64,000 nucleotides of DNA from Candidatus Aminicenantales bacterium (GCA_049512315.1 JBEKXF010000001.1:137340-201339), one strand, 5' to 3'; shown: positions 6,858 to 46,735, counted from the stretch's first letter. The notes: generated from the sequence alone by a model not told the origin. Program-made: numbers and translations.

Positions 6858-6902
6858 AAATCGGGGCAACGGACGACGAGAAAATATTCGGAGGAGAGCG
6901 AT

Positions 6903-11263: not shown

Positions 11264-12577
11264 ATGAACACAAAGATCGGCATCCGGAGAGAAGACATCA
11301 ACAAGTGGGAAAAGCGCGTCCCTCTCATCCCTTCGCACGCCCGGGAGCTCGTCGGGAAATATCCCATCGAGATCCGCATTCAGCCGTCCGACATCCGCGT
11401 CTTCACGGACGACGACTACCGCCTCTCTGGGATTCCCGTCAATGAAAACCTCTCGCCGTGCGACATCGTCCTGGCCCTCAAGGAGATCCCCATCGAGCGC
11501 CTGGAAAAAGACAAGGTCTATGTCTTTTTCTCCCATACGGCCAAGGGCCAGAGCCACAACATGCCCATGCTCAAGAAGATGATGGAGATGGGCTGTTCCA
11601 TCATCGATTATGAGAGAATGGTCAACGACAAGGGCCAGCGCGTCCTGTATTTCGGAAATTACGCGGGACACGCGGGGATGGTCGACACGCTCTGGGCCCT
11701 GGGCCGGCGGCTGGCCCTGGAGGGTATCCCGAACCCGTTCACCGTCCTCCATCCGGCCCACCAATACAGGAACCTCGTGGATGTCAAGGAGGCCGTCGGC
11801 GAAGTGGCCTGGAAGATCATCCGGGAAGGCCTGCCGCGGGAGCTCGATCCCCTGGTTGTCGGCTTCTTCGGCTACGGCCACGTGTCCCAGGGGGCCCAGG
11901 AGATCTTCGATATCCTCCCCGTGGAGACGATCCGGCCGCGCGACCTTCCCCGGCTCTTCGAGAGCGGTCGGGAATCGCCCCGGACGATGTACAAGGTCGT
12001 CTTCAAGGAAGAGGACATGGTGGAGCCGGTCGTCCCTGGCCGGCCGTTCGAGCTTCAGGATTATTATCAGAACCCCCAGAGCTACAAGCCGGTCGTCGAA
12101 GGGCTGGTCCCTTACCTGACGGCCCTCGTCAACGGCATCTACTGGACGCCGAAATACCCCAAGTTCGTGACCAAGACCTTTCTGAAAAAGCTCTACGGCG
12201 GCGGTTCCCGGCCGCGCCTCCGTGTCATCGGCGACATCACTTGCGACATTGACGGGTCGGTCGAATGCACGGTCGAGGCCACCGACTCCGAGAACCCGGT
12301 GTATGTCTACGATCCCTTAAAAGACAAAGTTCTTCTTGGGTTCGAGGGCCCGGGCCCCGTGGTCCTGGCCGTCTACAATCTTCCCGCGGAGCTCCCGCTC
12401 GAGGCCTCCACGTATTTCAGCGGCGGCCTGAAGGAGCATGTCCCGGCCATCGCCAGTGCGGATTTCCGGGCAAGCTTCGCCCGCTGCGGGCTGCCGGACG
12501 TCCTCCGCCGGGCGGTCATTCTCTATCGCGGGGAGTTCCCCCCCGGCTACGCCTACCTCAGCGGTTTCATCCAATAA
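11264..12577 (+). CDS. Lysine-ketoglutarate reductase / saccharopine dehydrogenase (L-lysine-forming), AlaDH-PNT fold
   Basis: N-terminus MNTKIGIRREDINKWEKRVPL is typical of LKR/AlaDH-like enzymes. A Rossmann segment follows. The partner saccharopine dehydrogenase lies immediately downstream. Confidence 0.7.
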   Translation: MNTKIGIRREDINKWEKRVPLIPSHARELVGKYPIEIRIQPSDIRVFTDDDYRLSGIPVNENLSPCDIVLALKEIPIERLEKDKVYVFFSHTAKGQSHNMPMLKKMMEMGCSIIDYERMVNDKGQRVLYFGNYAGHAGMVDTLWALGRRLALEGIPNPFTVLHPAHQYRNLVDVKEAVGEVAWKIIREGLPRELDPLVVGFFGYGHVSQGAQEIFDILPVETIRPRDLPRLFESGRESPRTMYKVVFKEEDMVEPVVPGRPFELQDYYQNPQSYKPVVEGLVPYLTALVNGIYWTPKYPKFVTKTFLKKLYGGGSRPRLRVIGDITCDIDGSVECTVEATDSENPVYVYDPLKDKVLLGFEGPGPVVLAVYNLPAELPLEASTYFSGGLKEHVPAIASADFRASFARCGLPDVLRRAVILYRGEFPPGYAYLSGFIQ

Positions 12578-12596
12578 AACCTATCAGGAGGGCGTC

Positions 12597-13922
12597 ATGA
12601 AAAAGATCCTCGTCTTCGGCGCAGGACTGGTCGCGGGACCCCTGGTGAAATACCTCCTCGACCGGCCGGACTTCCACGTGGCCGTGGCGGACGTCGAGCC
12701 CGGCCGGGCGGCCCGGCTCGTTTCCGGCCATCCGCGGGGCGAGGCGATGGTCCTTTCCATCGAGGACCGGGCGGCCGTGAAGGCCGCGATCGAAAAGGCC
12801 GACCTGGTCATCAGCATGCTTCCGTATGTCTTCCATCCGGTCGTCGCGGCAGCCGCGATCGATTCCGGCAAGAGCGTCGTGACGGCTTCTTACGCGAGCC
12901 CGGCCATGAGGGAGCTCGACGGCCGGGCCCGGGAGAAGGGGGTCATCGTCCTCAACGAGCTCGGGCTCGACCCAGGGATCGACCACATGGAGGCCATGAG
13001 GGTCATCCACAAGGTCCATGGCGAAGGCGGCCGCGTCCTGGGTTTCATGTCTTATTGCGGAGGGTTGCCGGCCCCGGAAGCCAACACCAACCCCTTCGGA
13101 TACAAATTTTCGTGGAGTCCCAGGGGTGTTCTGCTGGCCTCCAAGAATTCGGCCAAGTATCTCAAAGACGGGAAGGTCGTTCTCATCCCCGCGGAACAGC
13201 TCTTCGATAGCCCGGAAATGATCTCATTTCCCGGCCTCGGTGAATTCGAAGCGTATCCCAACAGGGATTCAGTATCCTACCGGGAGATCTACGGGATCCC
13301 GGAAGCCAGGAATGTCCTGAGGGGGACCCTCCGGTATCCGGGCTGGTGCCGGACCTTGAAAAAGATCGGGGACCTGGGGCTTCTGGACGACACAAGCGTC
13401 AAAGATTGGACGGGGCGCACGTATCGCGACTTTATGGCTGGCCTCGCCGAGGCCCCGGCCGGAGCGGACCTCAAGACGGCTGTCGCCGCCCGCTTGGGGC
13501 TCGACGCCGGTTCGGACATCATCGGGCGCCTGGAATGGCTGGGCCTGTTCGAAGCCGAACGGCTCCCAATCCAAAAAGGCTCAGCCCTCGACATCCTGGC
13601 GGCGAGGATGGTCGAGCGGCTCAAGTATGCCGAAGGCGAGAGGGACATGGTCATCCTCCAGCATGAATTCGTGGCGGAGGACCGGAACGGCCGCCGGGAG
13701 AAAATCATATCGACGCTCATCGACTTCGGGATCCCCGGCGGAGACTCCTCGATGTCCCGGACGGTCGGGCTGACGGCGGCCATCGGCGCCCGCTTCATCC
13801 TGGAAGGCAAGATCCAGGGAACCGGAGTCCATGTCCCCGTCACTCCGGATATCTACAACCCTATCCTCGACGAGCACGCCCGGCTCGGCATCCGGTTCAA
13901 AGAGACGCGACAGCCATTGTGA
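12597..13922 (+). CDS. Saccharopine dehydrogenase (NADP+, L-glutamate-forming)
   Basis: AGGAGGG RBS, then MKKILVFGAGLVAG Rossmann start. Sacchrp_dh-type motifs ELGLDPGIDHM and the C-terminal domain (YPNRDS...GWCRTL). Confidence 0.8.
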   Translation: MKKILVFGAGLVAGPLVKYLLDRPDFHVAVADVEPGRAARLVSGHPRGEAMVLSIEDRAAVKAAIEKADLVISMLPYVFHPVVAAAAIDSGKSVVTASYASPAMRELDGRAREKGVIVLNELGLDPGIDHMEAMRVIHKVHGEGGRVLGFMSYCGGLPAPEANTNPFGYKFSWSPRGVLLASKNSAKYLKDGKVVLIPAEQLFDSPEMISFPGLGEFEAYPNRDSVSYREIYGIPEARNVLRGTLRYPGWCRTLKKIGDLGLLDDTSVKDWTGRTYRDFMAGLAEAPAGADLKTAVAARLGLDAGSDIIGRLEWLGLFEAERLPIQKGSALDILAARMVERLKYAEGERDMVILQHEFVAEDRNGRREKIISTLIDFGIPGGDSSMSRTVGLTAAIGARFILEGKIQGTGVHVPVTPDIYNPILDEHARLGIRFKETRQPL

Positions 13923-34841: not shown

Positions 34842-36134
34842 GTGAGGTCAATGATGAAAGAGTACAATCTGGTCGAGCTGGAGGAAAAAGAGCTCTCCGC
34901 CCTGAAGAAGCTCGCGGTCAGCATGGGGATCGAGGAGCCCGAAATCGAGGAAACCAGCAAGCACCAGCTGATCTTTAAGGTCCTCGAGGCCCAGGCCAAG
35001 AGGCAGGGAATGCTGTTCTCGGAAGGCGTTCTCGAGTGCCTCGAGGACGGCTTCGGGTTCCTGAGGGCCCCGGAGTTCAGCTACCTGCCGAGCCAGGACG
35101 ACATCTATGTTTCGCCTTCCCAGATCCGGAAATTCCAGCTCCGGACCGGGGACACGATCTCGGGCCACGTCCGGGCCCCGAAAAACGGGGAAAAATACTT
35201 CGCCCTGATCAAGATCGAGGCCGTCAACTTCATGCACCCGGACGTCATCATCGAGGAAAGGCGGAACGTCATCTTCGAAAGCCTGACGCCGCTCTATCCA
35301 TTCGAGATGATCAAGCTCCAGGACGGGAACCCGAAGAACATGAACGCCCGGGTCATGGAGCTCCTGACGCCCATCGGCAAAGGCCAGCGCGGGCTCATCG
35401 TGTCGCCGCCGAGGGCCGGCAAAACGACCATTCTCAAGACGATCGCCAAGTCCATCGAGAAAAACCACCCCGAGATCTTCCTGATCGTCCTCCTGGTTGC
35501 CGAGCGGCCGGAGGAAGTGACGGATTTCAAGAGGAGCGTCAACGGGGAGGTCGTCGCCTCGACGTTCGACGAGCCGCCGACCCGGAACGCCCAGGTCGCG
35601 AACATCGTCCTCGAGAAGGCCAAGAGGCTCGTCGAGATCAAGCGGGACGTCGTTATCCTGCTCGACTCGATCACCCGGCTGGCCAGGGCCCACAACGCGA
35701 TCGTCCCGCCCTCGGGGAAGGTCCTATCGGGCGGCATCGACGCCAACGCCCTTCACAAGCCGAAGAAGTTCTTCGGGTCGGCCCGCAAGGTCGAGGAAGG
35801 CGGGAGCCTGACCATCCTGGCCACGGCCCTGGTGGACACGGGAAGCCGGATGGACGAGGTTATTTTCGAGGAGTTCAAGGGGACGGGCAACATGGAGATC
35901 AACCTCGACCGGAGGCTCGTCGACAAGAGGGTTTTCCCGGCCATCGACATCAGCCGGTCCGGGACCCGGAAAGAGGAGCTCCTGATCGAGGAGGCGGACC
36001 TCAACCGGATCTGGGTCCTACGGAAGGTCCTCAGCCAGATGAACGAGGTCGAGGCCGTGGAACTCTTGATCGACAAGCTGAGCAAGACGAAGACCAACCA
36101 GGAGTTCATGAGCGCCATGAGCAAGGCCCTGTAA
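34842..36134 (+). CDS. rho: Transcription termination factor Rho
   Basis: N-terminal OB/RNA-binding region ([14 protein letters not shown]), Walker [11 protein letters not shown]-loop and R-loop. The start may instead be 34851 or 34854. Confidence 0.95.
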
Positions 36135-36156
36135 AAGAGCCAGAGACGGGGAACGA

Positions 36157-36192
36157 GGCCGGGCGGCCTAAGCCGCGCCGGCCTCTTTTTTT
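36157..36192 (+). terminator. Rho-independent terminator after rho
   Basis: GC-rich hairpin GGCCGGGCGGC-ctaa-GCCGCGCCGGCC followed by TCTTTTTTT. Confidence 0.65.
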
Positions 36193-36591
36193 GGCCAAAA
36201 AGCGATATAGACGCGGGCGTCGGAGTAGTTTTTGGGATCGCCTTGAAGAAGGATCGGTTCAGAAAGCGGACGATAATGGGAAAAGTCATGAAGCGGTTGC
36301 AAGGGACATTCTTTATAGAGGGGCAAAGAATTTCCACATTTGCACAAGGATTGGTCAGCGGGGATATTCACAGGCTGTGAAGAATTCTAAGTGAATGTAA
36401 TAGAAATAGATAAAGTGGGCTGGAATAATGAGTCGCATAAGGATTATTATGTCAACTAATATCAGGATCTGCCCAGAGGCAACAAATGGCCCGCCGATCG
36501 GCCGCTTTTCCCCATATGAAGGCTTGCGCGAGGGTTCCTTGGGGGGTGAGATTTGTAATGAAAAACCTTCCCGGAGCTGGACCTTACGACC

Positions 36592-37389
36592 TTACCCTTC
36601 TTTGGCTTTCAGTCTGCGGATGATGTCCTCGAGGACTTCGATAATCTCGCTTTGGGAAATAGATTGCTTCTTGAACTCCAGCCTAAGTCTGAACCTGTCC
36701 GTGTCTTCGGGGACGAAATTATAGACGTAATATTTGAGCTTTTTCAGCTTCCCCTTGAGGTGCTTAGAAAGGTCGCGGGTATCTTCTCGGGTCAGATGGC
36801 GCTCGGCGATCTCCTTGACGAGCTTGAGCATGTCTTCGTCGGTCTTCTGTTTGGCGATCTCGATGATCGTGCCCCGGCTGAATGCTCCGGAGGACTTGAT
36901 GATCTCCCGGACAGACGCCGGGATCCTCGAGATCGAGAGTATTTCGGTGATCGTCGAACGGGCTTTCCCGATCTTTTCGGAGACCTGTTGGTGGTTGTAC
37001 CCGTAAAGGTCGATCAGGGATTGGAGGCCGTCGGATTCCTCGAAGAGGTCAAGGTCTTTCCGCTGAAGGTTCTCGATCAGGGCGATCTCCATGGCCTCGT
37101 TTTCCTCGACGTCCATCTCGATGCACGGGATCTCCTTGAGCCCGATATTCCTCGAGGCCAGAAACCGCCGCTCGCCGGCGATGATCTCAAACCTGTTCCC
37201 TTTGGAGCGGACAAGGATGGGCTCGAGGACACCCTTGCTCCGGATGGATTCCATGAGCTCCTGGATGTTGCCGAGCTCGCTCCGGGCCTGATGGGGGTTC
37301 GGGTCGATATGCTCGAGCGGGATCATCCGGATGCGGGGTCCGAGCGACCTGGACGAAAGCAGGTCGACAAAGTGGCCATCATGCCTCAT
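36592..37389 (-). CDS. parB: Chromosome partitioning protein ParB
   Basis: ParB box (GERRFLASR), HTH and C-terminal dimerisation region. Start at MRHDGHF. The longer ORF-track N-terminus is Arg/Ser-rich, low-complexity, and overlaps parA. Confidence 0.85.
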   Translation of the reverse strand: MRHDGHFVDLLSSRSLGPRIRMIPLEHIDPNPHQARSELGNIQELMESIRSKGVLEPILVRSKGNRFEIIAGERRFLASRNIGLKEIPCIEMDVEENEAMEIALIENLQRKDLDLFEESDGLQSLIDLYGYNHQQVSEKIGKARSTITEILSISRIPASVREIIKSSGAFSRGTIIEIAKQKTDEDMLKLVKEIAERHLTREDTRDLSKHLKGKLKKLKYYVYNFVPEDTDRFRLRLEFKKQSISQSEIIEVLEDIIRRLKAKEG

Positions 37390-37417
37390 CGTGACGGTTT
37401 CAGGAAGACCGGATCGC

Positions 37418-38182
37418 TTAGCTTTTTGCACGTTCCAATATCTCCTCGGCGACTTTTCGGTATTGCTCCGCCCCGACGGATTCGGGAGCATATGTGAAGA
37501 TCGATTCCTTGTAGGCCGGGCTCTCTTCGAGCTTGACGCTCTTCGAGATAAATGTCTTGAAGACCTTCTTTCCGAAGACGCGGCGGATCCTCTGCACGAC
37601 ATCCCGCCCGAGGTTCGTCCTCCTGTCGTGAAGAGTGACCAGGACCCCGATGATCTTCAGGCCGGGGTTGGCGATCCGGCGGACTTTCTCGATGGTCTCT
37701 AGGAGGTCATCCGTGCCCTCGAGAGCCAGATATGAGGATTGGATCGGGATCAGGATGGCCGACGCGGCGACGAGGGCGTTCATGGTGATCAAGCCCAGGG
37801 TCGGCGGGGTGTCGATGAAGATGAACTGGTATTTGTGCTTGATGGATTCGAGGGCGTCCTTCAGGCGGAAATGAGCGTCGATCTCGCCGAGAAGGGATGG
37901 CTCCAGCTTGGCCATGGAGATCTTGGCCATCGCCATGTCCAGGCCAGGAACCGTTGAACGGACGATAATGTTATCCATCTTCTCGTGTTTGTTCATTAGG
38001 ACATCGTAGAGCGATTTTTCATAGCTCGACGGGTCGGCCACGGTCGAGATCGTGCTGTGGGCCTGAGGGTCCATGTCTATGAGGAGGACCTTCTTCCCCA
38101 TCAAAGCCAGGGCAGATGAAATGTTGATGGATGTCGTGGTTTTCCCTACGCCGCCTTTCTGGTTCGTGATAGCGATGATCAA
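37418..38182 (-). CDS. parA: Chromosome partitioning ATPase ParA/Soj
   Basis: Deviant Walker A NQKGGVGKTT. Putative TTG start giving (M)IIAITNQKGG, preceded by GGAGGGAGAG at a 6-nt spacing. A GTG two codons upstream is an alternative. Confidence 0.8.
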   Translation of the reverse strand: MIIAITNQKGGVGKTTTSINISSALALMGKKVLLIDMDPQAHSTISTVADPSSYEKSLYDVLMNKHEKMDNIIVRSTVPGLDMAMAKISMAKLEPSLLGEIDAHFRLKDALESIKHKYQFIFIDTPPTLGLITMNALVAASAILIPIQSSYLALEGTDDLLETIEKVRRIANPGLKIIGVLVTLHDRRTNLGRDVVQRIRRVFGKKVFKTFISKSVKLEESPAYKESIFTYAPESVGAEQYRKVAEEILERAKS

Positions 38183-38222
38183 GAGCCTCTCTCCCTCCAC
38201 GACGGATTGAAACAAGATTACA

Positions 38223-38251
38223 TTTATAATAAAAGAGGACTTGGAATGCAA
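38223..38251 (-). promoter_or_regulatory. Candidate parAB promoter TTGCAT-N17-TATAAA (minus strand)
   Basis: Minus-strand -35 at 38251-38246 and -10 at 38228-38223, about 40 nt upstream of the parA TTG. Confidence 0.4.
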
Positions 38252-38275
38252 GCGAATTCTAGTTCTTGGACAGGA

Positions 38276-38297
38276 AAATGTCGGCACGCCGACATTT
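38276..38297. repeat. Perfect 10-2-10 inverted repeat AAATGTCGGC-AC-GCCGACATTT
   Basis: Exact reverse-complement arms. Lies about 25 nt upstream of the parAB -35 element. Confidence 0.6.
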
Positions 38298-38503
38298 ATT
38301 GTAAATATTTGAATATAAATGAGTAAAACAAATGTCCAGAATCCGGTCGGAAGTCTTGGTCCGGCCTTTTTGCGACCGGGCGAGGTCGCGGCTAAATAAC
38401 GGTAGAATTAGTGGTAGCTGACGGATTGGTTTCGTGGGCGGGGGTGAATTAGGAAAAGAAGAAAAACGTGGCTGAATAAGATCGGGCGTTTGGCGACGGT
38501 TGA

Positions 38504-38519
38504 TTTGCCGAAATCGGCA
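38504..38519. repeat. Perfect 7-2-7 inverted repeat TTGCCGA-AA-TCGGCAA
   Basis: Exact reverse-complement arms within the AT-rich non-coding region. Confidence 0.5.
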
Positions 38520-39070
38520 AAGGCTGTCCGGCGTCGGTCGATGGTAGGGCTTGCTTCTGTCATGTGAAGACGGGCCGAAAAAAAGGCGGCTCAAGACCCG
38601 TGATATGAATTCAAAGGTGCGAAATCTCGATCAAACTGAGCCTGCCCTCCCCTCTTTTTAAAGCTGGTGATCTTGCGTCGGCATAACCGGGTTGCCCATT
38701 GCCCGTTAGGCTTGATAGGCGGATAGACAATCGAAAAGGGTAAGCCGGGGAGACGGCTCGATGACAATTCTATAAGGAATAGCGATTGCGTAAAATTAGA
38801 TTTCGAATGGAGGTGATGAATTAATAATCTCTTATCTAGCTGATAATAAATAATATACTAAGATGTCACACCGGCTGGACAAGAGAGTCAGGAGAGATAG
38901 CTCGGGAAGCTCAATGCGTCGTTCCGGAGGGAGGTTTGGGCGGACGTCAAGCACGGGTTGGCGTCCATGATGCCGCTCGGCGCCAAGGGCTGTCGCGTTT
39001 TTGCGGAGCTCGGAAAATATTCCTCACGCTTTATCCCGAAAATCCCGTACAATGAGGCCTGGCCGAGAGC

Positions 39071-40480
39071 ATGAGCCCGGAAACATCCGAACCAAAATTT
39101 CTCAGGCGGCTGAACCTCATGGACACGGCCTTCCTCGTCGTCGGTGCCGTCATCGGGTCGGGGATCTTCATGACGCCGGGCCTGATCGCCGCCGGCGTCC
39201 CCTCCCCCGGCCTCCTGCTCGTCGTTTGGCTGGCCGGAGGCCTGGTCACTCTCTGCGGGGCACTCTCCTTCGCCGAGCTCGGGGCGATGTACCCGCAGGC
39301 CGGGGGCCAGTACGTCTATCTCCGCGAAGCGTACGGACCTGGCGCCGCCTTCCTTTTCGGCTGGGGCTTTTTCGGGTTCATCATGTGTGGCGGCCTGGCG
39401 GCCCTGGCCGTCGGCTTCGCCGAATTCTTCGGCTCCTTCGTTCCCCGCCTGTCCACGGGGGTCGAGATCGCCCATTTTTCGGCCTTAGGTTTTTCCTATT
39501 CGCTATCGGCCGGGCAGCTGGTCGCCGCCGCCTCTATCGTCCTCTTGACCGTCATCAACTCGTTCGGGATCCGGGCGGGCGTCGCCGTCCAGAACCTCCT
39601 GACCGTCTTCCGGATCGGGGCGGTCGGGGCGCTCGTTGTCCTGGGGCTCGTTTTTGGGACCAAGTCGGGCGGGACGAACTTCCACCCGCTCTTCCCCGGA
39701 GGGTTGGAATTCCCCGGCCTCCTGAAACCGCTCGGCCTGGCCCTGGTCGCGGTTTTCTGGACCTATGACGGCTGGTATTCCGTCAACTGCACAGCCGAAG
39801 AGATCCGGGACCCGGAGAAAAATATTCCCCGGGGGCTGGCCCTCGGCGTCGCCGGGGTCACGGTCTTATATGTCTCGGTCAATCTCGTCTACCTTCTGGC
39901 CCTTCCGCTGGAGAAGCTGAAGGGGGTCGTGCGGGTCGGGGAACTCGTCACGACGGCCCTTTTCGGCGGCGGCGCGGGAGCGGCGATCGCGGCCGTGATC
40001 ATGGTCTCGGTCTTCGGCTGCCTGAACGCCAACCTGCTTTTCGGGCCGCGGGTCTATTACGCCATGGCCAAGGACGGGAGCTTTTTCCGGTCCATGGCCC
40101 GCCTCAGCCCGCGCACCAGAGTCCCGACGCGCGCCCTCTGGGGCCAGGCCGCCTGGTCCGCCGTGCTCTGCCTGTCGGGGACCTACCAGGCCCTGTACGA
40201 GTACATGGTCTTCGCCCTGCTCGTCTTCTTCGCGGCGACGGGCCTGGCCGTCATTGTCCTCCGCCGCCGGCGACCCGAAGCCAGCCGCCCCTACCGGACG
40301 TGGGGATATCCTATTATTCCTATGATATTTGTAGTAATTTGCCTGGCGATCTTCATCAACATTCTCCTTGCCCAACCCCTGAAGTCCGCAGCGGGCCTGG
40401 CCCTGCTCGGGGCCGGCCTGCCGGCCTTTCTGATCTGGCGGAGGCGCCGTCCGGCGGATGGCGGGAACCTCAAAAAATGA
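39071..40480 (+). CDS. APC-superfamily amino acid/amine permease
   Basis: 469 aa with 12 predicted TM helices. The N-terminal FLVVGAVIGSGIFMTPG motif is typical of APC transporters. Confidence 0.8.
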   Translation: MSPETSEPKFLRRLNLMDTAFLVVGAVIGSGIFMTPGLIAAGVPSPGLLLVVWLAGGLVTLCGALSFAELGAMYPQAGGQYVYLREAYGPGAAFLFGWGFFGFIMCGGLAALAVGFAEFFGSFVPRLSTGVEIAHFSALGFSYSLSAGQLVAAASIVLLTVINSFGIRAGVAVQNLLTVFRIGAVGALVVLGLVFGTKSGGTNFHPLFPGGLEFPGLLKPLGLALVAVFWTYDGWYSVNCTAEEIRDPEKNIPRGLALGVAGVTVLYVSVNLVYLLALPLEKLKGVVRVGELVTTALFGGGAGAAIAAVIMVSVFGCLNANLLFGPRVYYAMAKDGSFFRSMARLSPRTRVPTRALWGQAAWSAVLCLSGTYQALYEYMVFALLVFFAATGLAVIVLRRRRPEASRPYRTWGYPIIPMIFVVICLAIFINILLAQPLKSAAGLALLGAGLPAFLIWRRRRPADGGNLKK

Positions 40481-40536
40481 TAGGCAAGGCCGGAGATTTG
40501 GTTTAAAATGAGGCTTCTCGTGGCTGGCTGCGGAAG

Positions 40537-42315
40537 ATGACGGACGTGACGTATTCCCTCGAGATCCTCCCTGACGGGACCAAGGTCCGGGTCCGGGCCG
40601 GGGAGCTCCTGGCCGACGCCCTGACGAGGGTCGGCATCCCTCTCAGCCTCTATTGCCACAAGCGGGGCGTCTGCGGGAAATGCGCCGTCCGGATCCGGGC
40701 GGGGCTCCTTCCCCTTCTCGAGGCCCCGGAGAAGGCCGTCCTCGAAAAACGAGGCCTCAGCCCCGACCACCGGCTCGCCTGCCGGTTCGCCGTCCGGGGC
40801 GATATGGCCGTGGAAATCCTCCCGGAATCGCGCCTGGGCAAGGTGGCCGTCCTCGAGACCGGCCTTTCCGCCCCCGTCACCCTCGACCCCCAAATCAAGA
40901 AGCTCGCCGTGACCCTGGGAAAGCCGCCTCTATCCGCCCCGGCGGCCGTGACGGAGAGCCTGGAATCCCTCCTCCGGACGCCCGGCCTGGGCTTCCCTCT
41001 TCCAGCCCTGAGGGGCCTCAAGGGTCTGGACTCTGGGTCCCCCCGGACGGTCACGGCCGTCCTCTACGGCGAGCGGGAGGTTGTTGATGTCGAGCCCGGC
41101 GATACCTCCGGGCGGGCCTTCGGCCTGGCGGTCGACATCGGCACGAGCACGGTCGTCGTCGAGCTCGTCGACCTGGTCACGGGAAAATGCGCCGGCCGGG
41201 CTTCGGCCCTCAACAGCCAGGCCTCCTACGGCGCCGACGTCGTCTCGAGGATCGCCTATGCTTTCCAGGAACCGGACAATCTCAAGCGCCTGAAGAAGTC
41301 CATTGCCCATCTCCTGAACACCCTGGCCGGCGAATTGTTGGAAAAAAGCGCCGTCCCGAGGGAGCGCGTCTACGAGGCTGTCGTCGCCGGAAACACGGCC
41401 ATGAACCACTTCCTTTGCGGCGTGAGCGTGGATCCGCTGGCCTTGTCCCCCTTCCACGCGGTCTTCGCGGCCCTTCCACCCTTCCCCGCCGCCGAGATCG
41501 GCCTCGAGCTCAACCCGGCGGCCCGGGTTTACATCGTCCCCAACATCAAGAGTTTCGTCGGCGGGGACATCACGGCCGGGCTGGCCGCCTGTGCCCTGGC
41601 CGAGAAGCCGGGCCACGCGCTCTTCATCGACATCGGGACCAACGGCGAGATCGTCCTCAAGAAAGGCCAGCAGTTCATGGCCACCTCAACGGCCGCCGGG
41701 CCGGCCTTCGAGGGGATGAGCATCAGCTGCGGCATGCTGGCCGTCGAGGGCGCCGTCCACCGGGCCGAATGGCGGGACGGCTTCCGTCTCCAGACGATGG
41801 GCGGAGGGACGCCACGCGGCCTCTGCGGTACGGGGCTTATCGACGTCCTGGCTGTTGGCCTGGCCCGCGGCCTCATCGGCCGCGACGGCAAGATCGCGGG
41901 CCCGGAGAAAAAGCTCCGGCTGGGCGACAGGCTCAGCCTGACCCAGAACGATATCCGGGAGGTCCAACTGGCCGCGGCTGCGATCAAGACCGGCATCCGG
42001 CTGATGCTCCGGGAATTCCAGGTGCCGCTGAAGGACCTCGACGCCGTGTACATCGCCGGCGCCTTCGGCAACTCGCTCGATATCCGTAACGCCCAGGCCT
42101 TGGGCCTTCTGCCCGGGATCCCGGATCAAAAGATCGCCTTCGTCGGGAACTCGTCGTTGGCCGGGGCGCGCAAGCTCCTTCTCTCGGCCCCCGCGCGGGC
42201 GGCCGCCGAGTCCCTGGCGAAGAGCATCGTGCATGTCTCGCTGGCCACGAGGCCGGATTTCCAGGATGAATTCGTCCGCTGCCTGGAATTCGGGCCCCTG
42301 CCCGGAGGTGGATGA
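40537..42315 (+). CDS. RACo-type reductive activase of corrinoid proteins (N-terminal 2Fe-2S ferredoxin plus ASKHA ATPase domain)
   Basis: Plant-type ferredoxin cysteines (CHKRGVCGKCAV...LAC). ASKHA/actin-fold phosphate motifs (GLAVDIGTSTV, LFIDIGTNGEIV, GAFGN). Confidence 0.75.
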   Translation: MTDVTYSLEILPDGTKVRVRAGELLADALTRVGIPLSLYCHKRGVCGKCAVRIRAGLLPLLEAPEKAVLEKRGLSPDHRLACRFAVRGDMAVEILPESRLGKVAVLETGLSAPVTLDPQIKKLAVTLGKPPLSAPAAVTESLESLLRTPGLGFPLPALRGLKGLDSGSPRTVTAVLYGEREVVDVEPGDTSGRAFGLAVDIGTSTVVVELVDLVTGKCAGRASALNSQASYGADVVSRIAYAFQEPDNLKRLKKSIAHLLNTLAGELLEKSAVPRERVYEAVVAGNTAMNHFLCGVSVDPLALSPFHAVFAALPPFPAAEIGLELNPAARVYIVPNIKSFVGGDITAGLAACALAEKPGHALFIDIGTNGEIVLKKGQQFMATSTAAGPAFEGMSISCGMLAVEGAVHRAEWRDGFRLQTMGGGTPRGLCGTGLIDVLAVGLARGLIGRDGKIAGPEKKLRLGDRLSLTQNDIREVQLAAAAIKTGIRLMLREFQVPLKDLDAVYIAGAFGNSLDIRNAQALGLLPGIPDQKIAFVGNSSLAGARKLLLSAPARAAAESLAKSIVHVSLATRPDFQDEFVRCLEFGPLPGGG

Positions 42316-43205
42316 TGAGCCGTTCGATATTGGACTTGGTCCGTCAAAGGACCGTTCTCCTGGACGGGGCCATGGGCACGGAGCTCATGGCCCGCGGGCT
42401 GCCCCAAGGGACATGCCCCGAATCATGGAACGTCGAGAAGCCCGCGGTCGTCGAGGAGATCCACCGGAGATATTTCGAGGCCGGCTCCGATGTGGTCTCC
42501 ACGAACAGCTTTGGCGGCAGCCGGATCAAGCTTGCCGGCCACGGCTTGGAAGGCCGGACCGCCGAACTAAATCTTGCGGCGGCGCGTCTGGCAAGGGTCG
42601 TCACGCCCGCGGGCAGATATGTGGCCGGGAGCATGGGCCCGACCGGAAAATTCCTCAAGCCCCAAGGCGAATTCGCGGAAGGGGAATTCGAGGCCGTTTT
42701 CGCCGAACAGGCCCGGGCTCTCGCCGACGGCGGGGCGGACGTGCTTCTCATCGAAACCCAGTACGACCTCCGGGAAGCCCTCTGCGCCCTCCGCGGCGCC
42801 CGGCGGAGCTCTCCCCTGTCGGTCTTCGTCACCATGACCTTCAACGCCGTCCCGCGGGGGTATTTCACGCTCATGGGCGATACCGTCGCCCGGTGCATGC
42901 AGGAACTCGAAAAGGAAGGCGCCCGGGCCGTGGGAGCCAACTGCACTCTCAACAGCGAGCAGATGACGGGTCTCGTCAAAGCCATGCGCCAGGAGACACG
43001 CTTGCCTCTGATCGCCCAGGCCAACGCGGGCCAGCCCGTCCTCGGGAGCGACGGCCGCGTGTCCTATTCTCAGGGGCTCGAAGACTACGTCAGGTTCGTT
43101 CCAGACCTCATCCGGGCCGGGGCCAATATTGTCGGCGGCTGCTGCGGCACGAGCCCCGCCTACATCAGGGCCATGGCCGAATCGATCTCAAGGAGGACCG
43201 CATGA
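42312..43205 (+). CDS. Homocysteine-binding-domain S-methyltransferase (MetH Hcy-domain-like, zinc thiol methyltransferase)
   Basis: LLDGAMGTEL, ETNSFGG, LIETQYDL, and the zinc ligands NCTLN plus GGCCGTSPAYI match the MetH N-terminal homocysteine domain. No pterin-binding domain. Confidence 0.75.
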   Translation: MMSRSILDLVRQRTVLLDGAMGTELMARGLPQGTCPESWNVEKPAVVEEIHRRYFEAGSDVVSTNSFGGSRIKLAGHGLEGRTAELNLAAARLARVVTPAGRYVAGSMGPTGKFLKPQGEFAEGEFEAVFAEQARALADGGADVLLIETQYDLREALCALRGARRSSPLSVFVTMTFNAVPRGYFTLMGDTVARCMQELEKEGARAVGANCTLNSEQMTGLVKAMRQETRLPLIAQANAGQPVLGSDGRVSYSQGLEDYVRFVPDLIRAGANIVGGCCGTSPAYIRAMAESISRRTA

Positions 43206-43855
43206 AAAAGGAAGATCTCTATCTGCAGATGAAGAAGGCGATCGTCGAGGGCGACGGCGCCGGGGCCGGGCGGCTGGCCGGCGAGGCCGTCAAGGCGGGC
43301 CTGGACCTTCTCGAAGTCATTGAAAAAGGCTATGTTCCAGGGATCCAGAAGGTCGGCGAGCTGTGGGAGCAGGGAGAGTATTTCCTGCCCGAGCTCATCT
43401 CCAGCGCCGAGGCCATGAAGGCGGCCATGGCCGTCCTCAATCCCGAGCTCCAGCGCTCCCGTCTTCAGGCCAGGACGGCCGGAAAAGTGGTCATCGGGAC
43501 GATCGAGGGGGACATCCACGACATCGGCAAGAACCTCGTGTCCTCCATGCTCCAGGCCGGCGGCTTCGAGGTCTTCGACCTCGGCGCCGACGTCAAGCTC
43601 GAAAGGTTCATTGAAAAGGCCGAGTCCGTCGGCGCGGATTTCATCTGCCTGTCCGCCCTGCTGACGACGACGATGGTCAACCAGAAGCGGTTGGTCGCGC
43701 TCCTCAGGGAGAGAAACCTCAGGGACAGATACAAGGTCCTCGTGGGAGGGGCACCGGCTAGCCAAAGGTGGGCCGACGAGGCGGGTGCCGACGGCTATGC
43801 TGAGAACGCGGTGGCCGCCGTCAAGCTGGCGAAGAGCCTGGCCCCGAAGAGATGA
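43202..43855 (+). CDS. Cobalamin-binding corrinoid protein (B12-binding cap plus Rossmann domain)
   Basis: ATGA overlap with the upstream stop. DxHxxG motif (GDIHDIGKN) and SxL (SALLTTT) of B12-binding domains. 217 aa. Only the C-terminal part of the long ORF-track entry 42233..43855 is real. Confidence 0.8.
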   Translation: MKKEDLYLQMKKAIVEGDGAGAGRLAGEAVKAGLDLLEVIEKGYVPGIQKVGELWEQGEYFLPELISSAEAMKAAMAVLNPELQRSRLQARTAGKVVIGTIEGDIHDIGKNLVSSMLQAGGFEVFDLGADVKLERFIEKAESVGADFICLSALLTTTMVNQKRLVALLRERNLRDRYKVLVGGAPASQRWADEAGADGYAENAVAAVKLAKSLAPKR

Positions 43856-43868
43856 CGGGAGACAGACC

Positions 43869-45338
43869 ATGATCGAGACAAAAAGACCGAAGATCGAGCT
43901 GCTGAGCCCCGAGTTAGTCGAAAAAATCGTCGACGAGGGTCTTGTGCTCCTCGAGAAGCAAGGGGTCTTCGTCGAGAACCAGGAGGCTTTGAAGCTCCTG
44001 GCCGCGGCCGGCGCCCTTGTCGACACGGGCACTGAGAGGGCCCGGCTCGACAGAAAACTCGTCCTGGACTGCCTGTCGTCGACACCGGCCACGATCACGA
44101 TGTACGACCGGGGCGGCGAAAAGTCTTACCTCGTCGGAGGCGACGAGATCCATTTCGACCCGGGCTCGGCGGCCGTCTCCCTCCTCGACCACGAGACCCA
44201 GGAGGAGAGGAAGGCCGTGACGCGGGATCTCGTGGCGTTCTGCCGGCTCGTGGAGACGCTCGAGCACATCCATTTCCAGAGCACGGGACTGATCTCCTCG
44301 GATGTCCCGGCCGCGATCGCCGACTGTTACCGGCTGTACCTGGGACTTCTCCTCTCGTCCAAGCCCATCGTCACGGGGACGTTCCGGGTCGAGAGCTTCA
44401 AGCCCATGAAGGATCTTCTCGTGGGCGTCCGGGGCGGCGAGGCCGAGCTCGCCCGCAAGCCCCTGGCGATCTTCGACGCCTGCCCCTCCCCTCCCCTCAA
44501 ATGGAGCAACCTGACGACCCAGAGTCTGATCGACTCGGCCCGGGCCGGCATCCCCTCGGAGCTCATCTCGATGGGCATGACGGGCGCGACGTCCCTCGCC
44601 ACCATCTCGGGGACCCTGGTCCAGCACGTGGCCGAGAACCTCTGCGGCCTCGTCATCTGCCAGCTGGCCCGGCGTGGCGCCCCGGTCATCTTCGGGGGAT
44701 CGCCCTCGAGCTTCGACATGAGGAAGGGGACGACGCCGATGGGGGCCATCGAGACCATGATGATCGACTCGGCCTATGCCCAGATCGGGAAAAACCTGAG
44801 GCTCCCGACCCATGCGTATATGGCCCTGAGCGACTCCAAGGTCAACGACGCCCAGAGCGGGATCGAGACGGCCCTGGGAGCGGCCCTAGCGGCACTCTCC
44901 GGGATCAACGTCATCTCGGGCCCGGGCATGCTGGACTTCGAGAGCTGCCAGAGCCTCGAGAAGCTGGCCATCGACAACGAGATCTGCGGTATGGTCTACC
45001 GGCTGGTCGCTGGCATCGCCCAGCGGGAAGACCCGATCGCCCTCGACAAATTCGAGGGCTTCAAGGCCGATTTCCAGTTCCTGTCCCATCCCCACACGCG
45101 CCAGTGGTACAGAAAAGAACACACGATGCCGGCACTCATGGACAGGGACCCTTACGAGGCTTGGGTCATGGCCGGCCGCAAGACCGTCCTTGACAAGGCC
45201 CACAAGGACGTGACGGACAGGATCAGGAAATATACCCTCCCTCCGCTTCCCGATGGTTTACGGAAAGAGCTGGAAAGGATCATGACCGGCTACGCCCGGT
45301 CCCAGGGACTTGGAACCCTGCCGAAGACGGGCCTCTAA
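43869..45338 (+). CDS. MttB-superfamily (non-pyrrolysine) substrate:corrinoid methyltransferase (MtgB/MtpB/MtcB-like)
   Basis: GGGAG RBS. 489 aa TIM-barrel MttB-family protein with no in-frame amber codon. Start at MIETKRPKIELLS. Confidence 0.75.
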   Translation: MIETKRPKIELLSPELVEKIVDEGLVLLEKQGVFVENQEALKLLAAAGALVDTGTERARLDRKLVLDCLSSTPATITMYDRGGEKSYLVGGDEIHFDPGSAAVSLLDHETQEERKAVTRDLVAFCRLVETLEHIHFQSTGLISSDVPAAIADCYRLYLGLLLSSKPIVTGTFRVESFKPMKDLLVGVRGGEAELARKPLAIFDACPSPPLKWSNLTTQSLIDSARAGIPSELISMGMTGATSLATISGTLVQHVAENLCGLVICQLARRGAPVIFGGSPSSFDMRKGTTPMGAIETMMIDSAYAQIGKNLRLPTHAYMALSDSKVNDAQSGIETALGAALAALSGINVISGPGMLDFESCQSLEKLAIDNEICGMVYRLVAGIAQREDPIALDKFEGFKADFQFLSHPHTRQWYRKEHTMPALMDRDPYEAWVMAGRKTVLDKAHKDVTDRIRKYTLPPLPDGLRKELERIMTGYARSQGLGTLPKTGL

Positions 45339-46735
45339 TCGAGGACGAGGGAACCGAGGTACTCCGGGGCCTCCGCCGTCCAGCCCCGCTCCCGGCGGAT
45401 CCTTTCGGCGAAGCGGAGAGCGACCTGCGCGTCTCCATGGTTGACGAACAGCCGGCGGGGCGGCGCTTGGAAGGCGTCAAGCCAGCGGCCCAGGGCTTTC
45501 CTATCGGCGTGGGCCGAGAACCCGTTGATCTTGACTACCCGGGCCCGGACGGGGTAAACCTGTCCTAAGATCCGGACTTGGGCTTGTTTCTCGAGGATCT
45601 GGCGGCCGAGCGTTTCCCGCGCCTGGTATCCCACGAAGAGGATGGTCGATTCAGGCCGGCTGATGTTATAGCGGAGATGGTGCTTGATCCGGCCGCCCGT
45701 GCACATCCCAGACCCAGCCATGATGATGACCGGACCCCGGACGGAGTTGATGGCCTTGGACTCCTCGATGGTCCGGACGATGACGAGCCCGGGGAAATCG
45801 AAAGGGCTCGTTCCGGCTTCAAAGAGCGCCCGGGCGTCCTCGTCGAGGTCGGTTGGATGGCGGCGGAACACCTCGGTGACTTCACGGGCCATGGGGCTGT
45901 CCAGGTAAATTGGAAGCGCGGGGATGGCCTTGGCCCGGACGAGACGGCTGAGATAGAACATGAGCTCCTGGGCCCGTTCGATGGCGAAGGTGGGGATGAC
46001 GATGTTCCCGCCGGCCTGGGCGGCCTCCACGATCGTCTCGCGGAGGATCTCGTCCACGGCCTTGGGGTCCTCGTGGTCGTGGTCCGCATAAGTGGATTCC
46101 ATCACCACGTAATCGGCCCGGTCAAAGACGGAGGGGTCGCGGACGAACGGCTTGTCCCACTGGCCTATATCACCCGAGAAAACGATGCTCTTCGATCCGC
46201 CGTCCTGCCGGCCGGTCAATTCGATCATGGCCGAGCCAAGGATGTGGCCCGCGTCCCTGAACCGGGCGGTGAGGCCATCGGAGAGGGGGAGGTCGGTTTC
46301 GTAGGGGATCTCCTCGACGAGGGGCATGGCCCGCTGGACGTCCTCGATGGTATAGAGCGGCACCTCAGGGTGGGACCCGGGCCGCCCTTCCTTCTTGTGA
46401 CGCTTCTGCTTAAAGGCTGCGTCTTCTTCCTGGATCCGGGCCGAATCCAGGAGGGCGATGGACAGGAGATCGGCGGTGGCTTCCGTGGTCAGGATCGTCC
46501 CCGAAAAACCCTCGCGGACGATCTTCGGGATGAGGCCCGAATGGTCCAGATGGGCATGGGTCAGAAGCAGCAGGTCGAGCTCTTCCGGAGGAACGGGAAA
46601 CGGATCCCAATTCCTTTTGAGAAACGGCCGTTCCTGGTAGAGTCCGCAGTCGATGAGCACCTTCATCCCGCCGGCTTCGAGGAAGGAGCAGGACCCCGTC
46701 ACCTGGCCCGCCGCACCCAAGAAGGTGATCTTCAT
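45335..46735 (-). CDS. MBL-fold beta-CASP ribonuclease (RNase J / CPSF-like)
   Basis: HAHLDHSG motif 2 plus beta-CASP motifs A, B and C (D, H, H). Start at MKITFLGAAGQVTGSC. The long N-terminal extension in the ORF track is rejected. Confidence 0.75.
   Translation of the reverse strand: MKITFLGAAGQVTGSCSFLEAGGMKVLIDCGLYQERPFLKRNWDPFPVPPEELDLLLLTHAHLDHSGLIPKIVREGFSGTILTTEATADLLSIALLDSARIQEEDAAFKQKRHKKEGRPGSHPEVPLYTIEDVQRAMPLVEEIPYETDLPLSDGLTARFRDAGHILGSAMIELTGRQDGGSKSIVFSGDIGQWDKPFVRDPSVFDRADYVVMESTYADHDHEDPKAVDEILRETIVEAAQAGGNIVIPTFAIERAQELMFYLSRLVRAKAIPALPIYLDSPMAREVTEVFRRHPTDLDEDARALFEAGTSPFDFPGLVIVRTIEESKAINSVRGPVIIMAGSGMCTGGRIKHHLRYNISRPESTILFVGYQARETLGRQILEKQAQVRILGQVYPVRARVVKINGFSAHADRKALGRWLDAFQAPPRRLFVNHGDAQVALRFAERIRRERGWTAEAPEYLGSLVLD

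Follow-up and report, generated by a model that had tools for sequence, protein, structure and literature searches.

The locus described here is a real five-gene operon in an uncultured Aminicenantes bacterium (Candidatus Aminicenantales), and with a little more confidence than doubt we read it as a complete three-component corrinoid methyltransferase system with homocysteine as the methyl acceptor, which would make it a folate-independent, B12-dependent methionine synthase. In metagenome annotation, MttB-family genes are routinely labelled trimethylamine or glycine betaine methyltransferases, and conclusions about methylotrophy and about competition with methanogens are drawn from them. One large branch of the family does not have the residues with which any characterised member binds its substrate. 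In Aminicenantes this is the dominant branch, and there it is linked to a homocysteine module and not to folate; its nearest relatives are found in Asgard archaea and Bathyarchaeia. If our reading is true, the operon would represent a distinct way to methionine, which would matter for how much B12 is needed and how methyl groups are budgeted in peat and sediments, and the trimethylamine and glycine betaine annotations of the branch would need correcting. The conserved operon, including its permease, would then also offer five defined proteins with which to identify the substrate biochemically.

Organization of the operon and conservation of gene order

The window is the whole stretch of DNA analysed, 64,000 nucleotides in length. 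Five co-directional open reading frames lie at 39071-45338 on its + strand, and a profile search against Pfam gave each of them a clear family. Both the coordinates and the gene content are those of the initial annotation. The genes and the sequence elements around them are as follows:

38832..38858, + strand, conserved AT-rich motif TTATCTAGCTGATAATAAATAATATAC between parA and the permease gene, from an alignment of 25 orthologous upstream regions
39048..39053, + strand, -10-like hexamer TACAAT, 17 nt upstream of the permease ATG (conservation only)
39071..40480, + strand, APC permease (PERM), 469 aa (Pfam AA_permease_2, 4.8e-63)
40481..40509, + strand, sigma-70-like site TAGGCA-17-TAAAAT in the gap between the permease and activase genes (consensus match only)
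40537..42315, + strand, RACo-type activase, 592 aa (Pfam Fer2, RACo_linker, Raco_middle, RACo_C_ter)
42312..43205, + strand, MetH-type homocysteine S-methyltransferase module (HcyMT), 297 aa (Pfam PF02574 S-methyl_trans, 1.8e-69)
43202..43855, + strand, corrinoid protein (CorP), 217 aa (Pfam B12-binding_2 and B12-binding)
43869..45338, + strand, non-Pyl MttB homologue, 489 aa (Pfam MTTB, 3.3e-86)

Read directly from the sequence, the junctions bear out the tight packing described earlier: RACo/HcyMT and HcyMT/CorP are ATGA overlaps, while gaps of 56 nt and 13 nt separate the permease from RACo and CorP from the MttB homologue, respectively. The longest open reading frame of the MttB homologue would start at GTG 43785 and overlap the corrinoid gene by 71 nt; the gene callers chose ATG 43869, a start common to all 489-aa homologues. 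The candidate MT1, the corrinoid protein, the candidate MT2 and the reductive activase are all encoded together.

Gene order was compared across 57 species-representative loci that include 5 kb or more of upstream sequence. The full five-gene order is present in 24 of them, and of the 22 closest species-level relatives, which are all Aminicenantes, 21 have it; with such recurrence, the arrangement is no accident of position. The HcyMT-CorP-MttB trio is found in 36/57 loci, and an adjacent homocysteine module is missing in the other 21, a point against the methionine-synthase reading.

Upstream of the permease, the AT-rich motif occurs as two tandem copies in most relatives and may be an operator or promoter element. 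The TACAAT hexamer, which reads TAGAAT or TAAAAT in relatives, lies so close to the permease ATG that the leader would be very short, with no space for a riboswitch, and no Rfam family matched anywhere in 38200-39150.

The methyl acceptor, the corrinoid protein and its activase

What would accept the methyl group? HcyMT matches PF02574 with 235.2 bits, and its best match in the PDB is the homocysteine domain of T. maritima MetH (156.9 bits), compared with 80.7 bits for MmuM and about 70 for BHMT. By bit score it is thus much nearer to the homocysteine domains of corrinoid-dependent MetH than to the direct-donor enzymes. The zinc-ligand cysteines, Cys211 (GANC) and Cys277/278 (GGCCG), are intact and align to INC and GGCCG of T. 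maritima MetH, and the motifs DGAMGTE, TNSF and ETQ are also present. Judged by these matches, HcyMT is a stand-alone MetH-type homocysteine-binding module, an identity more specific than the “thiol S-methyltransferase” originally assigned to this gene. It shifts the reading of the locus from a catabolic methylamine-to-folate pathway to a methionine-synthase-like system. No gene for a pterin-binding, MtrH, URO-D, MetH or MetE protein is annotated at window positions of about 1-55 kb, and neither a folate nor a CoM methyltransferase was found in this annotated part. Therefore, the operon reads as MT1-corrinoid-MT2(homocysteine), and we propose HcyMT as the MT2 that would pass the methyl group from the methyl-Co(III) corrinoid protein to homocysteine. 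Its ATGA coupling on both sides and the recurrence of the trio support homocysteine as the acceptor. A second, independent link to homocysteine methylation comes from a Lokiarchaeial member of the sister clade, in which CorP-MttB lies beside a core-MetE-like gene (PF01717). A folate-linked MT2 of the MtgA/MtgD type, or a normal MetH or MetE, may be encoded elsewhere in the genome, in which case the homocysteine module would be only one of two outlets, as it is in Ruegeria.

The activase combines an N-terminal 2Fe-2S ferredoxin domain (Cys40/46/49/82) with an ASKHA ATPase domain, and all four Pfam domains of the RACo architecture (ferredoxin, linker, middle and ASKHA ATPase) are present. By this architecture it is a RACo-type ATP-dependent reductive activase of corrinoid proteins. 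Its score against the NCBIfam model AcsV, 383.7 bits, is below the cut-off of 800, which indicates a paralogue and not AcsV proper. The corrinoid protein carries the base-off/His-on motif DIHDIG (DxHxxG type) at residues 104-109; it scores 236.7 bits against TIGR02370, over the cut-off of 215.3, and 241.7 against the MtgC-type model NF047995, under the cut-off of 310.

The substrate pocket of the MttB homologue

PF06253 (COG5598 superfamily) matches the MttB homologue over residues 2-470 with 289.8 bits (cut-off 25), which places the protein in the family. Against the solved structures, its scores for Pyl-MttB (7xcl, 193.6 bits, 5.7e-56) and MtgB (2qne/9yce, 190.7 bits; 4.3e-55 for 2qne) are equal, and its identity to MtgB of Desulfitobacterium hafniense (DhMtgB) is about 30%. 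More than 150 clusters at 50% identity are nearer to it than MtgB or MttB are, and a scan of 185,579 GTDB species-representative genomes returned 439 relatives. In sequence terms, it is a member of a large, uncharacterised subfamily that Asgard archaea and Bathyarchaeia also possess, and we propose that it acts as the MT1 that methylates the Co(I) corrinoid protein.

Two known identities were considered and rejected. The protein is not a Pyl-dependent trimethylamine methyltransferase: the open reading frame has no UAG or other in-frame stop, Leu320 occupies the position of the pyrrolysine (Pyl334), Ser350 that of Tyr364, and the TIGR02369 score (371.7 bits, cut-off 525) is no higher than that of MtgB itself. 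Nor is it an MtgB-type glycine betaine methyltransferase. In MtgB, Y97 and F356 hold the quaternary nitrogen and R312 and H348 bind the carboxylate (PDB 2QNE/9YCE; PMC13080624). Two independent alignments (phmmer and hhalign) show that Y97, R312, H348 and F356 correspond to S100, H315, S350 and E358, respectively, so that the aromatic pair and the carboxylate-binding pair are both replaced and the pocket signature becomes S100/H315/L320/S350/E358. All four replaced residues are invariant in the clade, Ser100 and Glu358 in 20 members of it, and the R312 equivalent is His or Gln across the wider subfamily. The equivalent of Met249 of Pyl-MttB is kept.

The initial annotation had described the enzyme as non-Pyl, had suggested a substrate outside the classical betaines and had recommended a look at the active site; the residue alignment upholds the first two points. 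With its low identity to MtgB and the loss of all four substrate contacts, the protein shows no tight grouping with MtgB of the kind that would have counted against that annotation. It is unlikely that the methyl donor is glycine betaine or any other acidic betaine like those already known. The exchange of the carboxylate-binding Arg/His and the aromatic pair for His/Ser and Ser/Glu, together with a permease of amino-acid type, points to a non-acidic or amino-acid-like N-methyl donor.

We infer the direction of methyl flow, homocysteine as the acceptor, the nature of the donor and the part played by the permease as follows. The MttB-family TIM-barrel protein (MT1) would bind a methylated nitrogen compound and transfer one methyl group to Co(I) of the 217-aa corrinoid protein. 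MT2 would activate homocysteine on zinc and take the methyl group from methyl-Co(III), so that methionine is made and Co(I) is regenerated. Cobalt accidentally oxidized to Co(II) would be re-reduced by the RACo-type activase, using its 2Fe-2S cluster and ATP. The LAT/SLC7-like permease would probably import the methyl donor and might export the demethylated product in return. A narrower version of this scheme, a widespread folate-independent route in which the S/H/S/E-pocket branch demethylates an imported N-methylated amino acid or a non-acidic methylamine and feeds homocysteine through the corrinoid protein, is possible, but we would not call it probable. If this version is true, the MttB superfamily would gain a new substrate class, and the methionine synthases a new physiological type, through which organisms of anoxic sediments and peat would feed scavenged methylated amino acids into the SAM cycle.

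The permease and competing explanations

The permease was correctly recognized as APC-type in the initial annotation, and the profile and structure comparisons now place it in the LAT/SLC7-like branch of that superfamily. Among solved structures it is most similar to BasC (6f2g, 199.5 bits) and next to xCT, b0,+AT, y+LAT and LAT1; the matches to solved LAT-family transporters range from 199 to 145 bits over residues 8-467, with 12-TM coverage, and the alignment shows the GSG (TM1) and YDGW (TM6) motifs. TIGR00909 and TIGR00911 match with about 211-216 bits, under their cut-offs; the TIGR00911 score of 211 bits indicates that the subfamily is not a named one. The transporter type suggests an amino-acid-like cargo and makes the permease a plausible candidate importer or exchanger of an amino-acid-like methyl donor. 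The role of importer given to it earlier stays plausible, but only about half of the loci (28/57) have the permease ahead of the MttB orthologue, and it may have its own promoter. The accompanying argument, that betaine systems pair with BCCT or ABC transporters, was incomplete, as the genes for MtcB and MtyB adjoin MFS transporters (PMC8604678).

Does the permease belong to the system at all? It could be a general LAT-type amino-acid exchanger that lies by chance between parAB and a four-gene methyltransferase operon in this lineage, a view to which we give some weight while holding it unlikely. BasC and other LAT-family transporters handle ordinary small neutral amino acids, and the source annotations of the permease give only a generic APA-family antiporter. 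The sigma-70-like match in the 56-nt gap ahead of RACo means that the permease may be transcribed apart from the other four genes, and in 29/57 loci no permease lies upstream of the MttB orthologue. On the other hand, no other transporter family recurs near the MttB clade, and the permease stays beside MttB-family genes in three or more different gene orders: besides PERM-RACo-HcyMT-CorP-MttB, these include aminotransferase-PERM-MttB2 (L025, L029), MttB2-PERM (L042) and PERM-RACo-(CorP)-MttB (L069), with PERM-HcyMT as a further arrangement (L077). Its divergence also parallels that of the MttB homologue, both being about 70% identical at rank 120.

A catabolic system for the demethylation of methylamines or quaternary amines, with the methyl group going mainly to tetrahydrofolate via an MT2 encoded elsewhere and the homocysteine module as a side outlet like MtgE of Ruegeria (PMC12478193), is rather improbable in our view. 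This is essentially how the locus was first interpreted; the endpoint would be oxidation or acetyl-CoA synthesis. One hint comes from 9/57 loci in which the trio directly follows AcsB-CooC-AcsD-AcsC-RACo (acetyl-CoA synthase/CFeSP genes), an arrangement that suggests a catabolic, Wood-Ljungdahl-linked role unexplained by a purely biosynthetic methionine synthase. The neighbourhood of the trio at L061 and L080 resembles a methylotrophy island, with a full pyrrolysine cassette and a dimethylamine methyltransferase that contains a UAG, and a Bathyarchaeial locus of the sister clade has the order CorP-MttB-MttB-RACo-MtrH. A dedicated permease and activase suggest a high flux; for the small methyl flux of methionine synthesis they would be a heavy investment, which counts against the methionine-synthase reading. 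Against catabolism, no pterin-binding or MtrH gene lies by the MttB homologue of the window, nor was one seen among the recurrent or sampled neighbour ORFs of 80 Aminicenantes loci, a survey that was not exhaustive. The homocysteine module, translationally coupled on both sides in the window, is the only MT2-like gene that recurs there.

Much less probable is that the MttB homologue works without pyrrolysine on a simple, protonatable methylamine, for example trimethylamine, and not on a quaternary amine, with His315 and Glu358 replacing the activating role of pyrrolysine. A pocket with an invariant Glu and His and without the carboxylate-binding Arg/His is consistent with it, as is the retained Met249 equivalent, and the dimethylamine methyltransferase next to the L061 and L080 orthologues would consume the product of trimethylamine demethylation. 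However, not only the pyrrolysine but also the catalytic Tyr364 is replaced (by Ser), TIGR02369 scores the protein no better than MtgB, the non-Pyl form is encoded even by organisms with the pyrrolysine machinery (L061), a permease of amino-acid type is ill-suited to trimethylamine, and no non-Pyl trimethylamine methyltransferase was found in the literature searched.

Slightly weaker still, and very improbable, is a reversed flow, in which the PF02574 protein would demethylate an imported S-methyl compound (methionine, S-methylmethionine or S-methylcysteine) onto the corrinoid protein, or the methylation of a thiol other than homocysteine: E. coli pairs the APC permease MmuP with the PF02574 enzyme MmuM, the MmuP model matches our permease weakly (51 bits) and LAT transporters carry methionine-like amino acids, but the module is far nearer to MetH than to MmuM and keeps the motifs shared with the T. 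maritima homocysteine domain, MttB-family proteins are known only as methyl-donor-side enzymes, and methyl transfer from methylcobalamin to a thiolate is so strongly favoured that reversal is unlikely.

Comparison with known corrinoid methyltransferase systems

The nearest relatives found outside Aminicenantes, at about 45% identity, belong to an uncharacterised archaeal MttB-like group from Asgard archaea, Bathyarchaeia, Brockarchaeia and others (Valentin-Alvarado et al. 2024, PMC11291895). The S-H-x-S-E pocket and a corrinoid partner are common to both, but in the archaeal group MtrH or a core-MetE-like gene replaces the PF02574 module and there is no LAT permease. Pyl-MttB of Methanosarcina barkeri (PDB 7XCL; PMC9842639) is as similar to the window's homologue as MtgB is and shares the Met249 equivalent; it differs in its UAG-encoded pyrrolysine, in Tyr364 and in the MT2 of the methanogen, the CoM methyltransferase MtbA.

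Like MtgB and the Eubacterium limosum enzymes MtpB, MtcB, MtyB and MthB, the window's MttB homologue is a PF06253 protein without pyrrolysine that is accompanied by a cognate corrinoid protein and an activase, and MtgB likewise has Leu at the Pyl position. The arginine corresponding to R312 is reported to be conserved in all five of these characterised acidic quaternary-amine enzymes (PMC13080624) and is absent from the window's homologue, and their MT2 is a tetrahydrofolate methyltransferase, whereas that of the window would be the homocysteine module.

That an MttB-family enzyme and a homocysteine module can share one corrinoid protein was demonstrated experimentally for MtgBCDE of Ruegeria pomeroyi by Mausz et al. 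2025, who also described a split methionine synthase in Phaeobacter inhibens (PMC12478193). As in the window, the system is modular and built around one cobalamin carrier, with an MttB-family enzyme and with the corrinoid protein and the homocysteine module (MtgE) each standing alone. The Ruegeria system, from aerobes, uses glycine betaine as the donor, has an essential pterin-binding MtgD with catabolic flux to folate, and its genes are scattered. The window, from anaerobic Aminicenantes, has a translationally coupled homocysteine module, a non-MtgB pocket and no MtgD-type gene nearby (about 1-55000 annotated).

A close precedent in parts and logic is the cluster of Electryoneota and other bacteria that Williams et al. 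2022 put forward as a novel methionine synthase whose methyl donor is unknown (PMC9324843). There, too, an MttB homologue, a MetH-type homocysteine module and a corrinoid protein lie in one cluster, and the same logic would apply. The window differs in having a RACo-type activase in place of a MetH-like SAM-binding activation protein and in adding the LAT-type permease. The activation-domain variant also exists inside the window's own MttB clade, as a MetH activation-domain-like (Met_synt_B12-like) protein adjoins CorP-MttB in 14/57 loci, replacing or accompanying RACo. The overall reading of the initial annotation holds for its genes, the lack of pyrrolysine, the APC permease and a substrate probably outside the classical betaines, but it missed the MetH-type module and the fact that this type of cluster had already been published. 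Both the cluster type and the methionine-synthase hypothesis are known from Williams et al. 2022, and the RACo-type activase and the permease are local variations on it.

Layout of the operon and its upstream spacer

ORF listing and translation place five co-directional genes on the plus strand at 39071-45338, and Pfam supports the gene set that the initial annotation had read from the sequence.

Genes of the operon, with domain assignments from Pfam
39071-40480, +, amino-acid permease of the APC superfamily
40537-42315, +, RACo-type reductive activase (2Fe-2S ferredoxin, linker, middle and ASKHA domains)
42312-43205, +, PF02574 homocysteine S-methyltransferase (HcyMT), 297 aa
43202-43855, +, two-domain B12-binding corrinoid protein (CorP)
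43869-45338, +, MttB-family methyltransferase

RACo follows the permease gene after 56 nt, the next two junctions are ATGA start/stop overlaps, and 13 nt separate CorP from MttB; the close packing claimed earlier holds. The MttB gene starts at the ATG at 43869 and not at the upstream GTG at 43785. Its reading frame is uninterrupted, with a leucine (Leu-320) at the pyrrolysine (Pyl) position, as expected for the amber-free enzyme initially described. Metagenomic contigs from several samples carry identical operon proteins. The operon is flanked by divergently oriented parA/parB on one side and a convergent β-CASP ribonuclease gene on the other. The stop codon of the latter (β-CASP/MBL, 45335-46735, minus strand) overlaps that of MttB by 4 nt (45335-45338), and no terminator-like hairpin lies between the two genes.

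The spacer between parA and the permease gene is 780 nt long and AT-rich, and largely accounts for the fall in GC content to 0.55-0.57 at 36000-40000, compared to 0.60-0.65 elsewhere; a large spacer (400-900 nt) is kept at the same position in most relatives. It contains a conserved 27-nt AT-rich motif (38832-38858, consensus roughly TAAnTAnnTGATAATAAAnAAGATA), followed by a degenerate second copy at about 38862-38890. In most of 25 relatives the motif occurs twice in tandem, with the copies about 35 nt apart. It has no match in Rfam and may be an operator. A conserved TACAAT-like -10-like box is located 17 nt 5' of the permease ATG, which leaves no space for a leader. Together with the blank Rfam searches (no match on 38200-39150 at E up to 1, and nothing except one tRNA in the whole window at gathering thresholds), this speaks against a riboswitch 5' of the operon. 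An origin of replication in the spacer was likewise rejected, as it contains no DnaA-box match. A further promoter-like site is found in the gap 5' of RACo.

Two other gene pairs of the window deserve mention. At about 5439-7223, the gene for an HdrD or DsrK-like CCG/4Fe-4S protein of 472 aa precedes one of the DsrC family, which fits earlier reports of dsrC without dsrAB in Aminicenantes. At about 11264-13922, 5' of the operon, two adjacent genes with AlaDh_PNT_N and saccharopine dehydrogenase domains point to a putative lysine or saccharopine-type metabolism.

Homocysteine module and MttB pocket

The PF02574 protein scores 249.9 bits against the homocysteine half of YitJ-type enzymes and 218 bits against the model of the stand-alone alphaproteobacterial “Bhmt”; the Bhmt of S. 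meliloti is MtgE according to Mausz et al. (PMC12478193). Its best solved structure is the homocysteine domain of Thermotoga maritima MetH (156.9 bits), while enzymes that take the methyl group directly from small donors score far lower (E. coli MmuM 80.7 bits, mammalian BHMT about 70 bits). The zinc-ligand cysteines (Cys-211, Cys-277/278) are present, as are the DGAMGTE, TNSF and ETQ motifs common to MetH, and CorP carries the His-on motif DIHDIG. Between about 1 and 55 kb of the window, the annotation contains no gene for a pterin-binding protein, MtrH, URO-D, MetH or MetE. These matches, the intact motifs and the lack of another acceptor gene nearby argue that the operon would encode a donor-side methyltransferase (MT1, MttB), a carrier (CorP), an acceptor-side methyltransferase (MT2, the homocysteine module) and a repair enzyme (RACo).

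MttB is nearly equidistant from its solved relatives, with 193.6 bits for Pyl-MttB (7xcl) and 190.7 bits for D. hafniense MtgB (2qne/9yce), to which it is about 30% identical. A special closeness to Pyl-MttB has been reported for the clade described in PMC9324843; scores against the Pyl-MttB equivalog model TIGR02369 (cut-off 525) give no such signal for the window protein (371.7, vs. 397 for D. hafniense MtgB and 447 for a second paralogue, MttB2), and we rejected a special relationship.

Mutagenesis and a ligand-bound structure have established that MtgB grips glycine betaine through cation-π contacts by Tyr-97 and Phe-356, and its carboxylate through Arg-312 and His-348; Arg-312 is conserved in the acidic-betaine enzymes MtcB, MtpB, MthB and MtyB (Picking et al. 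2026, PMC13080624). When these active-site contacts were checked in two independent alignments (phmmer and profile-profile), all four proved to be replaced: Tyr-97, Phe-356, Arg-312 and His-348 correspond to Ser-100, Glu-358, His-315 and Ser-350, respectively. The four residues are invariant in a 20-member clade alignment and near-invariant over 80 related loci, with isoleucine at position 358 in 2 of 16 sampled orthologues (L059 and L061 in our numbering of loci with MttB homologues). Ser-350 also aligns with Tyr-364 of Pyl-MttB, which is catalytic (PMC9842639). Because of the replaced pocket, Leu-320, Ser-350 and the score below cut-off, MttB is, as judged by sequence, outside Pyl-MttB, MtgB and the acidic-betaine enzymes as a group.

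Distribution, gene order and the permease

The window MttB has 6267 relatives among 1.84 billion cluster representatives in an exhaustive HMMER search, and over 150 clusters (50% identity) outscore either solved enzyme. A Ser-[His/Gln]-x-Ser-Glu signature runs through approximately the 60 best full-length representatives, reaching as low as about 37-40% identity. One of these, 45% identical to the window protein, has mostly archaeal relatives (Jord-, Loki-, Odin- and Freyarchaeia, Bathyarchaeia), proteins described as “a previously uncharacterized group” by Valentin-Alvarado et al. 2024 (PMC11291895). CorP-MttB stands without further partners in one archaeal context. On a Lokiarchaeia contig (L087:6344-9356) the pair lies tail-to-tail with a 297-aa core-MetE-like PF01717 gene, a different homocysteine methyltransferase family beside the same kind of MttB. 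On a Bathyarchaeia contig (L088:4799-15197), CorP-MttB-MttB-RACo-MtrH is followed by proline-racemase-family and ornithine-cyclodeaminase/mu-crystallin-family genes, a set that in this lineage would be consistent with demethylation of a proline-derived betaine.

Scanning GTDB at one genome per species yielded 439 relatives of MttB, and the best 80 are nearly all labelled Aminicenantes. ORFs were called in these 80 loci and searched with the five window proteins; our counts refer to the 57 of them that have 5 kb or more of upstream sequence. CorP lies 5' of the MttB orthologue in 54 of the 57, HcyMT occurs in 36, RACo in 37, and the permease lies 5' in 28. Twenty-four loci have the complete five-gene order, among them 21 of the 22 closest relatives. 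Orthologues further away (65-70% identity) have the orders AcsB-CooC-AcsD-AcsC-RACo-HcyMT-CorP-MttB, CorP-[MetH-activation-domain-like protein]-MttB, or RACo-CorP-MttB. This variation identifies CorP-MttB as the core; HcyMT is its commonest partner, and the activase alternates between RACo and an activation-domain protein. The latter (about 205 aa, weakly similar to Met_synt_B12) is found in 21 of the 80 loci, between or just 3' of CorP and MttB (e.g. L033:3140-3766, L052:8354-8968), usually where RACo is missing; L037 and L073 have both.

The acetyl-CoA synthase/CFeSP genes (AcsB, CooC, AcsD, AcsC, RACo) are directly 5' of HcyMT-CorP-MttB in nine loci (L025, L027, L029, L030, L034, L044, L061, L062, L080), where the homocysteine module occupies the expected place of the methyl-THF:CFeSP methyltransferase. 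In L061 (10509-17279) a complete Pyl cassette is located directly 3' of the MttB orthologue, in the order pylS-like gene, second corrinoid protein, pylB, pylC, pylD, tRNA-Pyl (CUA) and a dimethylamine methyltransferase with an in-frame TAG (L061:16938-16940). L080, labelled Ca. Aminicenantes, has the same layout. In the literature searched, Pyl is not reported from Aminicenantes. Among annotated families in the 80 loci, the recurrent neighbors are TPR proteins, peptidases, SDR, TatD, DUF885 and BNR proteins; BCCT, ABC or MFS transporters and a THF methyltransferase were rejected as such.

The permease is the only transporter family recurring near this MttB clade. Its placement within the APC superfamily, which had been suggested as a check, gave the bacterial LAT-family exchanger BasC as best solved relative (199.5 bits), followed by the eukaryotic SLC7 light chains xCT, b0,+AT, y+LAT and LAT1; it reaches the cut-off of no named NCBIfam subfamily. 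It adjoins MttB-family genes in several orders, among them aminotransferase-permease-MttB2 (L025:12238-16644, L029:10507-14598) and MttB2-permease (L042:2927-5891). MttB2 is roughly 30% identical, with a G/S/A/L/S pocket that also lacks the MtgB arginine; the aminotransferase in two loci is of class I/II, and this company suggests an amino-acid-like substrate. That the permease is kept near MttB-family genes across these orders favors both a functional link and an amino-acid-like cargo, for which the case is circumstantial. Against the link stand the promoter-like site before RACo and the absence of the permease from half of the orthologous loci. A linkage outside Aminicenantes was rejected: the best 120 permease homologues consist entirely of orthologues (69% identity or above), and the APC permease in the vicinity of a Bathyarchaeial MttB is not closely related.

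Function and relation to described systems

We lean modestly towards folate-independent, B12-dependent homocysteine methylation as the function of the operon, with a methyl donor that is probably non-acidic or amino-acid-like. Could the system instead be catabolic, with a folate-linked MT2 encoded elsewhere? This is the main rival, and it draws on the acetyl-CoA synthase genes that adjoin the trio in nine of 57 loci and on the pyrrolysine/dimethylamine cassette in two; the MT2 proposed within the operon is the homocysteine module. The interpretation initially given to the operon as a whole is partly supported: the departure from classical betaines stands, and the part assigned to the permease remains circumstantial. 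For the search for a new substrate class in the MttB superfamily, the locus offers a clean, conserved candidate.

The idea of a methionine synthase for such clusters is in the literature beforehand. In Ca. Electryoneota and “diverse bacteria”, Williams et al. 2022 (PMC9324843) found a cluster in which a non-Pyl MttB/MtgB homologue is joined by a corrinoid protein, a homocysteine S-methyltransferase and an activation protein that binds SAM, and they hypothesized a novel corrinoid-dependent methionine synthase with unknown methyl donor. In Ruegeria, genetics has shown that glycine-betaine demethylation (through MtgB and MtgD) and methionine synthesis (through MtgD and MtgE) share a single corrinoid protein (Mausz et al. 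2025, PMC12478193). The window operon follows the same logic as both systems, but has RACo in place of the activation domain, adds a LAT-type permease, is without a nearby pterin module, and its MttB has a pocket that excludes the known betaines. Given the shared logic and these four differences, we rate it as a variant of an already described, uncharacterized cluster type.
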